Below the pieces are notes generated by a model. It saw only the letters and a program-made list of their open reading frames with translations. It did not search any database and was not told the origin of the DNA. A DNA stretch of 64,000 bases from a virus: IMG/VR virus record IMGVR_UViG_3300045912_000220. One strand, given 5' to 3'. Position 1 is the first letter of the stretch, and every line of letters starts with the position of its first letter. The position numbers and the translations under genes are program-made. Below, in pieces: positions 6,334-27,715 of this stretch.

Positions 6334-7628
6334 ACAAGTTCATCACGTCGGTCAGCAACGGCATGCGTGCCGCGCTGGCCAGCAAGCGCGCACTGCCGCG
6401 CGACTACTTCGGCCGGCCGATGGACCGGAAGGACACTCCCGCCCCCAGCGCCGCCACCATCAAAACGATGGAGGACCTTCGCACCGCGTTTCTCGAACAG
6501 CACCGCGAGCTGACGCAGTTCATCGAGAAGGCGAACGGCGAGCTGAAGGAAACGGGCAAGGTGGCCAACGAAACGGCCAGCGCCATGCGGGCGCTATCCG
6601 AGTCGCTGAACACGCTCGGGACCCGGCTCGACAAGGTGGAGGGCAAGGCTGACCGGCTGGGCGAGGGCGAGCGCACGGCGAAGTCGCTGGGCGAGCAGTT
6701 CGTCGAGTCCGAGGAATGGGCGTCGTCTGGCGCGCTGCTCAAGGTGGCCAAGGCCCGCTGGGAGACGCGCGCTATCGTCAACGCCACCGGCCAGAACCAG
6801 CCGCTGGTTCCCGACATGCGGGTGCCCGGTATCGTGGCTACGCCGAACCGGCGGCTGCGCATCCGGCAGCTGCTGCCGGCGGGCACCACGTCGTCGAATC
6901 TGGTGCAGTTCGCGAAGGAAAACGTGTTCACGAACAACGCCGGACCGCAGGCGGGTGGCTCGCCGACCGTCGCGGCCGAAAACGTCGTGAAGCCCGAGAG
7001 CGACATCACGTTCACGCTGGCGAACGCGCCCGTCGTCACCATCGCGCACTTCATCCTCGCGTCCCGGCAGGTGCTGGACGACGCGCCGATGCTGGCCAGC
7101 TACATCAACGGCCGGCTGCAGTACGGCCTCGCGCTCGAGGAGGACGAACAGCTGCTGCTGGGTGACGGCACCGTCGGTAAGCTCGACGGCCTAATGAATC
7201 AGGCGACGTTCTACAACCGCGCCCAGACGGGCACGAAGCTCGACTGGCTGCGCCGGGCCATCACGCAGCTGCAGCTGTCCGAGTACGACGCCGAGTTCAT
7301 GGTCCTGAACCCCGCCGACTGGGAGGACATCGAGCTGACCAAAGATCAGGACCTGCGCTACCTGATCGCAAACCCGGTGTCGATCCTCGGCCCGCAGCTC
7401 TGGGGCCTGCCGGTAGTGCCGACGAACACGATGCCCGAGGGCCAGTTCCTTGTGGCGAACGGTTCGATGGCTGCGCAAATCTGGGATCGGTCGCAGGCCG
7501 CCATCGAGGTCAGCCGCGAGGACTCGGATAACTTCCGGCGCAACATGGTGACCCTGCTCGCCGAGGAGCGGCTGGCGCTGACGGTGTACCGCCCGTCGGC
7601 GCTAATCAAGGGCGTGTTCAGCGTCTAA
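6330..7628 (+). CDS. Major capsid protein, HK97 fold
   Basis: Coiled-coil delta domain, EDEQLLLGDG, GLPVV, FRRNMVTLLAEERLALTVYRPSA. Confidence 0.96.
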   Translation: MNKFITSVSNGMRAALASKRALPRDYFGRPMDRKDTPAPSAATIKTMEDLRTAFLEQHRELTQFIEKANGELKETGKVANETASAMRALSESLNTLGTRLDKVEGKADRLGEGERTAKSLGEQFVESEEWASSGALLKVAKARWETRAIVNATGQNQPLVPDMRVPGIVATPNRRLRIRQLLPAGTTSSNLVQFAKENVFTNNAGPQAGGSPTVAAENVVKPESDITFTLANAPVVTIAHFILASRQVLDDAPMLASYINGRLQYGLALEEDEQLLLGDGTVGKLDGLMNQATFYNRAQTGTKLDWLRRAITQLQLSEYDAEFMVLNPADWEDIELTKDQDLRYLIANPVSILGPQLWGLPVVPTNTMPEGQFLVANGSMAAQIWDRSQAAIEVSREDSDNFRRNMVTLLAEERLALTVYRPSALIKGVFSV

Positions 7629-7648
7629 CCCGAGGCGCGGAACGGGCA

Positions 7649-7678
7649 GGGGCGGGCCGGGCCATGACGGCCCGCCCC
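7649..7678 (+). terminator. GC-rich hairpin after the capsid gene (terminator/attenuator or mRNA stabiliser)
   Basis: GGGGCGGGCCG-8nt-CGGCCCGCCCC, 11-bp stem; only ATT follows, no U-tract. Confidence 0.5.
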
Positions 7679-26255: not shown

Positions 26256-26266
26256 GGCCGTGAGCC

Positions 26267-27715
26267 ATGACAACCCCGATCCTCGAACTAGACGAACTGG
26301 CCGCGTCGCAGTCCCAGCCGCACGTGCTGGTGAACCGCACCAGCCGACGGATTGAGGCCGCCGTAAATCTGGTGGTGGTCAGCCGGGACCTGAACACGCC
26401 ACCCGTCGCGCCGAGCGACGGCGACCGGTACATCGTGGGGTCCGACCCGATCGGGGATTGGTTCGGGCACGACAATCAGGTGGCCTACTTCAGCGCGGGG
26501 TGGCGGTTCCTTCAGCCGATACCCGGCTGGATAGCCTACGTGGCCAGCGAGGGCAGCTACTACCAGTACGACGCCGGCAGCCCGGTGGGCTGGGTCCCGT
26601 TCGCGGCTAACTTCACGGTCAGCAACACGGGCAGCCCGGGCGCCGACGTGCGCAACGTCAGCCAGCTGATATTCAGCGGCGCCGAGGTGCAGGAAGTCAG
26701 CGCGGGTATTGCGCTCGTCGAGATTAGCGGCGGCGGCGGCGGCGGCGGCGGCGGTGCTGGTGGCGCGCCGGGGCAGGTGCAGTTCAATTCGGCTGGTGCG
26801 CTCGGCGGCATGGCCGGCGCCCAGTCTTTCGGCGGCCGGCTGAAGCTGGTCGACTATGCCATCCTGTCGGGAATTGCCCCGCCGCCAGCGCCAGCGGCTG
26901 CCGACGGCGAGTCTTTCCTGTTCGGGCTGGCCATGGGGGCGATGACGCTGCCGCAGTGGCGGGCCGCTGCCGGCCGGCCGTTCGCCGCGTTCAGCGGCCA
27001 GTGGAGCAAGCGCGAGCGAGCGGTGCGCGTGTACAGCGGCACGACGTTCGACATTATCGGAGTCGGTGGGTTATCCGGCACCGGGACCCAGACGACGACG
27101 AACCGCACTCCCACCGGCACCAGCCTGCTGCAGCAGGTTTCTCGGCGGAACGGCGCGTCGACCGCGGCGTTGAACGCCACGGGGTCGGTCGGCCTGAACA
27201 GCTACGCGGACCAAAACAGCATCTTCGTGAGCGTTTCCGGCACGTCGCTGGGCGGCGGATTCCTCGCCATGGTCCGTGGTGGCTGGTCGAGCATCCGCAG
27301 CGACCAGCGGGTGTTTCTCGGGCTGGCGACGGCCATTAACCCGGCCAGCGCGGACCCGTCGACGTTCGTCAACTGCTTGGGCGTCGGCGCGGATGAGGCG
27401 GATACCACGCTGCAATGGCTCCGGAACGACGGATCGGGCACGGCCGTGAAGGTGAACACGGGGGTCAGCAAAACCGCCGCCGCCGACAAGCTCTGGGAAA
27501 TTCAGGTGTACGTCCCGCCGGGCGGTGGCCGCGCCGACCTGCGGCTGGTCGACCTAGATACCGGGACCGTCTACTCGCAGCTCAACGTCACGACCGAGCT
27601 GCCAGCGGCGAATGCCGGGCTGGGGCCGCTGGCGTGGGCGAACACTGGCGCGACGACTTCGACGTCCGTTTCGTCGTCGCTGAACGGGTACTACGCCGTC
27701 GAGGATTATGGCTGA
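26267..27715 (+). CDS. DUF2793-domain tail fibre/receptor-binding protein
   Basis: TTPILEL...SQSQPHV...PPVAPSDGDRYIVG...WFGHDNQVA...GWRFLQPIPGW. Confidence 0.85.
   Translation: MTTPILELDELAASQSQPHVLVNRTSRRIEAAVNLVVVSRDLNTPPVAPSDGDRYIVGSDPIGDWFGHDNQVAYFSAGWRFLQPIPGWIAYVASEGSYYQYDAGSPVGWVPFAANFTVSNTGSPGADVRNVSQLIFSGAEVQEVSAGIALVEISGGGGGGGGGAGGAPGQVQFNSAGALGGMAGAQSFGGRLKLVDYAILSGIAPPPAPAAADGESFLFGLAMGAMTLPQWRAAAGRPFAAFSGQWSKRERAVRVYSGTTFDIIGVGGLSGTGTQTTTNRTPTGTSLLQQVSRRNGASTAALNATGSVGLNSYADQNSIFVSVSGTSLGGGFLAMVRGGWSSIRSDQRVFLGLATAINPASADPSTFVNCLGVGADEADTTLQWLRNDGSGTAVKVNTGVSKTAAADKLWEIQVYVPPGGGRADLRLVDLDTGTVYSQLNVTTELPAANAGLGPLAWANTGATTSTSVSSSLNGYYAVEDYG
26729..26752 (+). repeat. (GGC)8 microsatellite encoding a poly-Gly linker
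   Basis: Eight uninterrupted GGC codons plus GGT. Confidence 0.85.

Follow-up and report, generated by a model that had tools for sequence, protein, structure and literature searches.

Maf-like Transferases and Described Virion Modification Systems

Maf proteins transfer CMP-activated nonulosonic acids to serine or threonine residues of an exported, polymerising structural protein. The Maf flagellin O-glycosyltransferase of Magnetospirillum magneticum (PDB 5MU5) resembles the phage enzyme described here in fold and is its best structural match, and transfer of a sugar onto Ser/Thr of a structural protein is the kind of reaction that we propose for the phage enzyme. The two differ in size, Maf having >600 residues and the phage protein ~198, a bare catalytic core; and in substrate, which is flagellin for Maf and, as proposed, virion proteins for the phage enzyme. 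We know of no sequon for Maf, whereas a Ser-Pro core is emerging for the phage enzyme. The GT42 enzymes Cst-I and Cst-II of Campylobacter jejuni belong to the same fold class (TM 0.57–0.62), although identity is only 10–12% and they act on lipo-oligosaccharide acceptors, not proteins; the PHROG label "alpha-2,3-sialyltransferase" carried by the phage protein derives from this likeness. The Bacteroidetes sequon D-(S/T)-(A/I/L/V/M/T) and the low-complexity Ser/Ala/Pro regions of PglL-type systems are likewise short, serine-local signals in exposed flexible segments. However, the Bacteroidetes sequon does not accommodate the phage core, S-P with a variable residue at −1 (G, A, D or S), and the Bacteroidetes and PglL systems employ periplasmic oligosaccharyltransferases, whereas the phage enzyme is presumably cytoplasmic.

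For a few actinobacteriophages it is established that the virion is glycosylated and that this alters its recognition by antibodies; to our knowledge, nothing comparable has been described for phages of Gram-negative hosts. In Che8-type mycobacteriophages the capsid and tail tube are reportedly the modified proteins, and glycosyltransferase genes adjoin the capsid gene, as in the phage studied here, but the host phylum differs, as the transferase families also appear to. True homologues of the Maf-like protein (29–34% identity, full length) are PmgO of P1, HdmB of P7, and Orf7 and gp8 of the Pseudomonas phages D3 and PMG1, respectively; Caulobacter phage CcrColossus is another carrier of such a gene. 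In D3 and PMG1 the homologue directly follows the major head gene, as here, and PMG1 has G-S-P in its capsid, its tail tube and its terminator; P1, a myovirus, has a gene context unlike that of this phage, and the D3 capsid has no Ser-Pro at either of the two capsid sites discussed below. For these four proteins we found no functional description beyond "putative morphogenetic function". Our literature search turned up no paper that connects phage genes of the sialyltransferase-like or Maf-like kind with glycosylation of the capsid, and only unrelated material on PmgO; a cryo-EM study of the capsid and virion of D3 makes no mention of glycans, and a paper on JBD30 mentions glycosylation for the pilus only.

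The Maf-like Gene and the Sugar-Modification Block

The window, a 64,000-nucleotide stretch of viral DNA, runs 1.66 times around a circular genome of 38,646 bp. The first gene after that of the HK97-type major capsid protein (6330..7628, + strand; Pfam PF05065) encodes a Maf/GT42-like putative glycosyltransferase (7845..8441, + strand; phrog_4603, E = 8e-33), and in many relatives, too, such a gene comes after the capsid gene. The match of its product to Pfam PF01973 (MptE-like) is below threshold, at 23.7 bits against a gathering cut-off of 34.6, and covers residues 102–138 only. The AlphaFold model (pLDDT 91) has Maf 5MU5 as its best Foldseek match in the PDB (E = 1.4e-4, TM 0.64), followed by Cst-II and Cst-I; the HPPK structure 8SD5 and SteA are also among the fold matches. 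With TM scores of 0.58–0.64 for Maf and the GT42 sialyltransferases versus 0.43–0.44 for HPPK, the predicted structure is that of a Maf/GT42-like Rossmann fold catalytic domain. In an alignment of the protein with homologues, H145 and D52 are invariant.

The rest of the sugar-modification block (8473..15207, + strand), annotated from Pfam and PHROG matches, comprises three DUF6716-like paralogues, methyltransferases, an SDR, an FkbM-type methyltransferase and a GT8-like protein. No nucleotide-sugar synthesis genes, including those for CMP-sugars, were recognised in the block with Pfam or PHROG, so any CMP-nonulosonic acid donor would have to be host-derived. There is no flagellin gene in this phage genome and the co-varying candidates are virion proteins; the enzyme thus departs from Maf proteins as defined by a flagellin substrate.

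G-S-P Tripeptides in This Genome

The starting point was a hand count, in an earlier note on this DNA, of Gly-Ser-Pro tripeptides in outward-facing virion proteins, which were proposed to be O-glycosylation signals. A scan of the gene set reproduced the count and its coordinates exactly: ten G-S-P, of which nine lie in eight virion proteins (capsid, connector and head completion protein; tail tube, distal tail protein, hub and tail tip; and the fibre, which has two) and one, at 14202, lies in a sugar-block enzyme, the single non-structural occurrence already reported. Over the whole gene set, the terminases, portal, protease, tape measure and remaining non-structural ORFs have none.

Ten occurrences compare with 2.98 expected from per-protein shuffles (P = 0.0014, uncorrected and for one pre-chosen motif). 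However, G-S-P ranks only 12th of the 621 tripeptides that occur at least five times in this genome, and the single-genome enrichment therefore fails once post hoc selection is counted, an excess of this size being what a choice made after the fact would yield anyway. Ser-Pro itself is barely enriched in the outer virion proteins of this genome (18 versus 12 expected). Glycine precedes it at 9/18 virion sites versus 1/21 elsewhere (Fisher P = 0.002).

Ser-Pro and the Maf-like Gene across Relatives

The comparison drew on ~280 related viral contigs with or without the Maf-like gene (Maf-carrying and Maf-less below). A scan of 395 dipeptides in the capsid, connector, tail tube, distal tail protein and hub, from 294 Maf-carrying versus 89 Maf-less sequence clusters, with Ser-Pro counts normalised to the Ser + Pro content of each protein, identified Ser-Pro as the dipeptide that best separates the two groups (G = 74.3, versus 12.1 for the runner-up). 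Its observed/expected ratio was 1.97 with the Maf-like gene and 0.53 without, so that the motif is not equally frequent in homologues lacking the gene cluster. In the same scan Thr-Pro, Ala-Pro, Asp-Pro and Asn-Pro showed no comparable difference, and a general x-Pro or Thr-Pro effect was rejected on this basis. An artefact of GC composition was likewise rejected, as relatives of 49–57% GC also carry the motif and the counts are normalised.

The excess is confined to particular proteins. Observed/expected ratios in Maf-carrying and Maf-less relatives, respectively, were 1.76 and 0.39 for the capsid, 1.76 and 0.58 for the connector, 1.99 and 0.90 for the head completion protein, 3.57 and 0.74 for the tail tube, 1.46 and 0.59 for the distal tail protein, and 1.96 and 0.46 for the hub. 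Control proteins showed no such excess: TerL (1.47 and 1.28), portal (1.44 and 1.14), protease (0.47 and 0.47), tape measure (0.90 and 0.67), a gp10-like protein (0.86 and 1.13) and terminator (1.03 and 1.54). The four kinds of protein in which the hand count had found no G-S-P (portal, protease, tape measure and terminase) thus also lack a Maf-linked Ser-Pro excess family-wide. Ser-Pro loops therefore co-vary with the Maf-like gene in six proteins, the capsid, connector, head completion protein, tail tube, distal tail protein and hub, and the association is strong, protein-specific and partly controlled for phylogeny.

Two elements of the original proposal need revision. Strict G-S-P does not hold as the signal: over 212 distinct sites the residue at −1 is Gly in 36%, Ala in 17%, Asp in 13% and Ser in 10%, and since Gly is the commonest yet dispensable, the core is x-S-P. 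The adjacent glycosylation operon had been named as the reader; what correlates best is the Maf-like gene on its own, and in many relatives this gene stands by itself or with a methyltransferase, the other transferases being absent.

Parsimony on FastTree phylogenies placed 28 inferred Ser-Pro gains on Maf-carrying branches versus none on Maf-less ones; these branch-length-weighted counts may be inflated for short proteins. They were used because an independent-pairs test on well-supported branches is underpowered, offering 2–4 contrasts per protein (concordant 0.5–3, discordant ~0), and cannot reach 0.05. Out of sample, both near-complete contigs picked solely by Ser-Pro in the distal tail protein carry a Maf-like gene elsewhere, and of the 15 contigs that lack Ser-Pro there, 14 have no Maf-like gene. 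A pattern scan of the contigs found one locus, which was left out of the evidence because the pattern itself contained S-P-E and was biased; an eight-sequence tail-tube alignment was too diverse to serve for a locus scan. There are exceptions in both directions. Two Maf-less relatives keep the motif, L082 as G-G-S-P in the capsid E-loop (with only 4.1 kb visible downstream) and L086 as G-S-P-E in the tail tube, and Maf-carrying L004, L009, L046, L048, PMG1 and TvV-S20 have no Ser-Pro at either capsid site.

Ser-Pro Sites in the Capsid

Alignment with HK97 gp5 (phmmer E = 7e-89) pairs capsid K221, N405 and E412 with HK97 K169, N356 and E363, that is, the crosslinking Lys and Asn and the catalytic Glu are conserved, and on these residues the protein is classed as an HK97-type chain-mail capsid. 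The G-S-P (G210-S211-P212, nt 6957–6965) falls within an 8-residue insertion placed between the residues aligned to HK97 D161 and V162, 10 residues N-terminal of the crosslink lysine. By the same alignment it sits at the tip of the exterior E-loop, in agreement with the outward-facing position assumed in the earlier note.

The insertion bearing Ser-Pro is found in 52 capsids of this clade, 51 of them Maf-carrying. A second site lies in the N-arm of other capsids, and Ser-Pro is present at one or other site in 121/128 Maf-carrying capsids versus 1/33 Maf-less ones. The E-loop association is largely one clade-level event, and the gain/loss association with the Maf-like gene at this site taken alone is not significant by per-site parsimony. 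In the N-arm clade, all 70 tips with Ser-Pro carry the Maf-like gene, and the serine was lost in each of three Maf-less lineages, which have G-N-N, G-N-P and G-E-P (the last with two residues fewer); all three losses fall on the Maf-less 5.3% of branch length (P = 1.5e-4). The N-arm is also the only site at which Gly at −1 is near-invariant (37/38).

Sites in the Connector, Head Completion Protein, Tail Tube, Distal Tail Protein and Hub

In the gp6-like head-tail connector (15164..15790, + strand; PF05135), G-S-P (nt 15611–15619, with S151 as its serine) occupies a loop after the AGY motif, in residues inserted relative to Maf-less homologues. An x-S-P is present at this loop in 86/128 Maf-carrying versus 2/36 Maf-less homologues, and all 14 inferred gains are on Maf-carrying branches (P = 5e-4). 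The G-S-P of the head completion protein (15931..16302, + strand; PF05521), at nt 16174–16182 with S83 as its serine, is also inside an insertion relative to Maf-less homologues; the insertion with x-S-P recurs in L044, L047, L009, L005 and L088, and all 25 Maf-less loci that have a homologue lack it.

The tail tube protein (17152..17580, + strand) was assigned from weak matches to lambda-like tail-tube Pfam families, and its G-S-P (nt 17209–17217, with S21 as its serine) is near the N-terminus. Here the difference from relatives is a substitution, Maf-less L014, for example, having I-D-P at the position; x-S-P-E/L is found in 65/90 Maf-carrying versus 1/24 Maf-less homologues. All six gains are on Maf-carrying branches, and three of the five losses are on Maf-less branches, which make up 10% of branch length (P = 0.009). 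The AlphaFold model has a pLDDT of 52, making it unusable for mapping exposure, and no sequence relatives of this protein were found in the PDB.

The distal tail protein (20065..20715, + strand; DUF2460, PF09343), which is like RcGTA Rcc01695, has its G-S-P at nt 20386–20394, with S109 as its serine. RcGTA has no Ser-Pro at the same position, the difference again being a substitution, and x-S-P occurs in 17/29 Maf-carrying versus 0/15 Maf-less homologues. In the baseplate hub (20712..21623, + strand; PF09931 and PF09356), G-S-P (nt 20853–20861, with S49 as its serine) stands near the beginning of seven residues inserted with respect to the RcGTA hub (6TBA chain 7A), and x-S-P is present in 10/29 Maf-carrying versus 0/15 Maf-less homologues. 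The suggestion that the motifs sit in short insertions is thus borne out for the capsid, hub, connector and head completion protein, but not for the tail tube and distal tail protein.

Sites in the Tail Tip and Fibre

The G-S-P of the Rcc01698-like tail tip protein (22038..26255, + strand; Pfam), at nt 25236–25244, is beyond the region alignable to RcGTA (the PDB alignment ends at residue 1037); some relatives have G-S-P there and others G-S-V, G-S-S or G-S-T. Family-wide Ser-Pro in this protein does not differ between Maf-carrying and Maf-less relatives (observed/expected 1.22 versus 1.10), nor does it in the DUF2793 fibre (26267..27715, + strand; Pfam; 1.8 versus 2.2). In a 28-homologue alignment, the first fibre site (nt 26576–26584) is shared as x-S-P with some Maf-carrying relatives and the second (nt 26630–26638) is unique to this phage. 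The inclusion of these two proteins is not supported: neither shows a Maf-linked Ser-Pro excess over its whole length, and the second fibre site is not conserved. Chance probably accounts for the G-S-P of the tail tip, the second one of the fibre and that of the sugar-block enzyme, the last being deleted or altered in homologues L044, L041 and L047; six or seven of the nine virion G-S-P are likely to be real sites.

Interpretation of the Ser-Pro Signal

The explanation that we favour, with some reserve, is that the G-S-P tripeptides are the local form of a Ser-Pro acceptor signal for Maf-like O-modification of virion proteins. The core of the signal would be Ser-Pro within a flexible, often Gly-rich surface loop, and the Maf/GT42-like enzyme encoded just 3′ of the capsid gene would O-modify the serine. 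The modification may be a sugar, a ulosonic acid from a host CMP-sugar being the obvious guess for this fold; the other transferases and the methyltransferases of the block might elaborate the product in this phage, and the resulting coat could protect or disguise the particle. The proposal that G-S-P is a glycosylation acceptor signal is supported in part, in so far as Ser-Pro loops track the Maf-like gene in six proteins, but not in its requirement for Gly.

One alternative is simple co-inheritance: the Ser-Pro loops could be ordinary turn-forming insertions that mark lineages of structural modules, with a Maf-like gene that travels along and acts elsewhere, for example on the surface of the host or on some other product of the phage. 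Structural genes adjoin the Maf-like gene and so would move with it, the E-loop insertion and the Maf-like gene mostly define one clade, strict independent-pairs tests are not significant, and exceptions run both ways. We nevertheless regard this as unlikely, because six proteins acquired Ser-Pro independently and at different positions, every one of the 28 inferred gains being on a Maf-carrying branch; because three Maf-less lineages each lost precisely the serine; and because neither neighbours in the same module (terminase, portal, protease, gp10-like protein and terminator) nor Thr-Pro, Ala-Pro and Asp-Pro carry the signal. Chance is very improbable. A slightly over-represented tripeptide in a high-GC proteome rich in Gly, Ser and Pro would fit the rank and uncorrected P value given above and the two or three of ten sites that are not conserved in relatives, but seven sites match x-S-P positions of relatives, including ones of ~50% GC, and the family-wide statistics are independent of how the motif was picked.

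A real Maf-dependent modification of Ser-Pro could also be something other than a glycan (for example phosphoryl, pyrophosphoryl or nucleotidyl), or a sugar that is not a nonulosonic acid. A pterin pyrophosphokinase (MptE) shares the PF01973 fold, 8SD5 and SteA appear among the fold matches, many relatives carry the Maf-like gene without other transferases, and CMP-sugar synthesis genes were not recognised in the block. We consider this improbable, rather more so than co-inheritance, given that Maf and the GT42 sialyltransferases are better fold matches than HPPK and that the gene stands first in a block which also encodes putative glycosyltransferases and methyltransferases of the FkbM type, known mostly from sugar and natural-product pathways. 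Moreover, in L076 galactosyltransferase/GT2 genes follow a capsid gene with the same G-G-S-P insertion.

Extending Ser-Pro-directed O-modification beyond this phage, we put forward more tentatively a widespread system in phages of Gram-negative bacteria, in which a minimal Maf-like transferase of the P1 PmgO/D3 Orf7 family, encoded beside the capsid gene, would read a Ser-Pro sequon repeatedly inserted into outward loops of capsid, neck and tail. Its donor might be a CMP-ulosonic acid that every host supplies, such as CMP-Kdo, with extension in this phage perhaps by KpsS/KpsC-like paralogues. Such a system would probably be a virion modification undescribed so far.

If correct, the link would provide a predictor, readable from sequence, of which phages have modified particles and of the residues concerned, and would give a function to a gene family of classic phages (P1 pmgO, D3 orf7) that has lacked one for decades. 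It would bear on the reading of unexplained densities in cryo-EM maps and would be relevant to phage therapy through immune recognition and stability, and the compact pair of enzyme and tag might find use in decorating capsids at chosen loops. The proposed link between Ser-Pro and the Maf-like enzyme is directly testable in cultured phages that have a homologue.

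Genome Organization and Distribution of GSP

The genome is 38,646 bp long and circular or terminally redundant; the window reads it 1.66 times with zero mismatches between the copies, positions 1–25354 being identical to 38647–64000. It is that of a siphophage (GC ~69%) with no close relative among cultured phages. A ParB-methylase, TerS, TerL, portal and S78 protease precede the HK97-type capsid gene (6330–7628), which is followed by a 7.4 kb block of putative sugar-modification genes (7845–15207), a gp6-like connector, head completion protein, gp10-like protein, tail terminator, tail tube, chaperones, tape measure, and an RcGTA-like tail tip (DUF2460 distal tail protein, hub, NlpC/P60 peptidase, Rcc01698-like protein and DUF2793 fibre). 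Within the sugar block, three tandem paralogues (8473–10945; one to three in relatives) have only weak matches, to DUF6716 ('putative glycosyltransferase').

An earlier note proposed that Gly-Ser-Pro (GSP) is the acceptor signal of this adjacent glycosylation operon. Its count is exact: GSP occurs ten times (6957, 14202, 15611, 16174, 17209, 20386, 20853, 25236, 26576 and 26630), nine times within eight virion proteins and once within a sugar-block enzyme (14202), with zero occurrences in the terminases, portal, protease and tape measure, as reported there, and zero in the remaining ORFs. The enrichment over per-protein shuffles holds for GSP considered as a single motif (ten versus 2.98 expected, P = 0.0014), but in a ranking of 621 tripeptides by surprise GSP comes only 12th, and the claim therefore cannot rest on this genome alone. 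Ser-Pro is scarcely enriched in the outer virion proteins (18 versus 12 expected); it is preceded by glycine in 9/18 cases in virion proteins versus 1/21 elsewhere (P = 0.002). Neither the GSP in the sugar-block enzyme nor that at the second fibre site (26630) is conserved in relatives.

A Maf-like Gene Follows the Capsid Gene

The first gene past the capsid (7845–8441) encodes a putative glycosyltransferase matching PHROG 4603 ('alpha-2,3-sialyltransferase', 8e-33) and, weakly and under threshold, Pfam MptE-like/PF01973. The closest PDB fold to its predicted structure (pLDDT 91, input of 23 homologues) is the Magnetospirillum flagellin glycosyltransferase Maf (5MU5, TM 0.64), then Cst-II and Cst-I, with archaeal HPPK and SteA as remoter matches. 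Homologues occur in P1 (PmgO), P7 (HdmB), D3, PMG1, PAJU2, jumbo Caulobacter and Brevundimonas phages and others, lying immediately after the head gene in D3 and PMG1; a literature search found no function described for any of these phage homologues.

In PAJU2 (L050, 5995–6564) the Maf-like gene follows a head-closure gene rather than the capsid gene, and the GenBank feature beneath the match is labelled 'structural protein', so that the enzyme may itself be virion-borne. In many relatives (L005, L026–L040, L078–L081, L087–L088 and others) the capsid gene is followed by a tandem pair of diverged Maf-like paralogues, a hint that there may be two sugars or two classes of acceptor. Tetraselmis viridis virus S20 (L051, 4191–12195), filed as an algal virus, has a tailed-phage genome with the window's layout: HK97-type capsid, two Maf-like genes, other glycosyltransferases, a methyltransferase and then a head-closure gene.

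Ser-Pro Tracks the Maf-like Gene across Virion Protein Families

Comparison of Maf-carrying with Maf-less sequence clusters for all 395 sufficiently frequent dipeptides, with no motif chosen beforehand, in the capsid, connector, tail tube, distal tail protein and hub, each normalised to its own composition, identified Ser-Pro as the top discriminator (G = 74.3; runner-up 12.1). Its observed/expected ratio is 1.97 in Maf-carrying and 0.53 in Maf-less clusters; in the same scan nothing comparable is seen for Thr-Pro, Ala-Pro, Asp-Pro, Asn-Pro, Gly-Ser or Ser-Gly. By family, the Maf-linked excess is present in the capsid, connector, head completion protein, tail tube, distal tail protein and hub; TerL, portal, protease, tape measure, gp10-like protein and tail terminator show none. 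This agrees with the protein pattern that the earlier note gave for one genome. In the tail tip and fibre, Maf-carrying and Maf-less relatives do not differ.

The capsid is closely homologous to HK97 gp5 (E = 7e-89; 50–60% identity over the mature domain), retains all three chain-mail residues (K221, N405 and E412, aligned with HK97 K169, N356 and E363) and very likely crosslinks. Its GSP (6957), the proposed modification site, falls within an 8-residue insertion at the E-loop tip, between residues aligned to HK97 D161 and V162; this loop also bears the crosslink lysine, 10 residues away. E-loops are exterior according to the D3 capsid paper, and among the candidate sites surface exposure could be argued for this one alone. 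Among 161 related capsids of known gene context, Ser-Pro is present at the E-loop site or at an N-arm site in 121/128 followed by a Maf-like gene versus 1/33 without; the E-loop association is mostly one clade-level event and alone is not significant. The residue before the serine varies at the E-loop site (G, S, A, V, D or T) and is glycine in 37/38 distinct N-arm variants. In the N-arm clade, Maf is present in 70/70 Ser-Pro-bearing tips, and the three Ser-Pro losses are those of the clade's three Maf-less lineages, on 5.3% of the at-risk branch length (P = 1.5e-4), leaving G-N-N, G-N-P and, with two residues fewer, G-E-P.

At positions equivalent to the window's other GSPs, x-S-P occurs in Maf-carrying versus Maf-less relatives in 86/128 versus 2/36 connectors (15611), 65/90 versus 1/24 tail tubes (17209), 17/29 versus 0/15 distal tail proteins (20386) and 10/29 versus 0/15 hubs (20853); for the head completion protein (16174) it occurs at a few Maf-carrying loci and at 0/25 Maf-less loci. 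By FastTree and parsimony, all 28 inferred gains (connector 14, tail tube 6, distal tail protein 5, hub 3) fall on Maf-carrying branches, which represent ~58% of the Ser-Pro-less branch length, although noisy short-protein trees may inflate these counts. Connector gains are significant by themselves (P = 5e-4), and tail-tube losses concentrate on Maf-less branches (P = 0.009); a stricter independent-pairs test offers too few contrasts for a verdict.

Additional contigs were picked by the distal-tail site alone, their Maf status unknown beforehand. Both near-complete contigs with the Ser-Pro have a Maf-like gene elsewhere; three fragmentary ones show none, two of which have close Maf-carrying relatives. 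Among contigs without the Ser-Pro, 14/15 lack a Maf-like gene, including three judged 100% complete.

Exceptions

In L082, which is Maf-less, the E-loop retains G-G-S-P; just 4.1 kb is visible downstream. Directly past this capsid gene lies a collagen-repeat protein gene (L082:5324–6340), possibly for a decoration protein or a fibre; no transferase is in view. L076 has the same G-G-S-P insertion and no Maf-like gene within the visible 3.7 kb, its capsid gene being followed by two Galactosyl_T genes, one of them a Galactosyl_T+GT2 fusion (L076:2829–5185). In Maf-less L086 the tail tube keeps G-S-P-E, yet the E-loop insertion reads S-G. Conversely, Ser-Pro is missing from both capsid sites in several Maf-carrying phages, PMG1/D3 among them. 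PMG1 (L049, 4459–10639) and D3 have G-S-P elsewhere in the capsid (S310), in the tail tube (S23) and in the tail terminator; Maf-less relatives of this tail tube are without the S-S-G-S-P-T insertion. The D3 cryo-EM paper, which covers virions as well, makes no mention of glycans.

Interpretation

These results are most economically explained if the Maf-like enzyme takes Ser-Pro within a flexible, Gly-rich loop as its acceptor signal and GSP is the form that this phage prefers; on this view, six or seven of the nine GSPs in virion proteins would be genuine sites. The main rival, that Ser-Pro loops and the Maf-like gene are simply co-inherited without an enzyme-substrate link, is hard to reconcile with the protein specificity of the Ser-Pro excess, with its repeated gain at differing positions, and with the serine-specific losses in Maf-less lineages. 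The fold and neighbouring genes suggest that the modification would be a glycan, probably an ulosonic acid supplied by a CMP-sugar of the host; any purpose ascribed to it is likewise inferred from these features.

Virion glycosylation is known for actinobacteriophages, and Maf enzymes for flagellins. The proposed pairing of a Maf-like enzyme with a candidate Ser-Pro sequon in capsid, neck and tail is, as far as we found, undescribed for proteobacterial-type phage virions and is open to test in D3, PMG1, P1 or CcrColossus.
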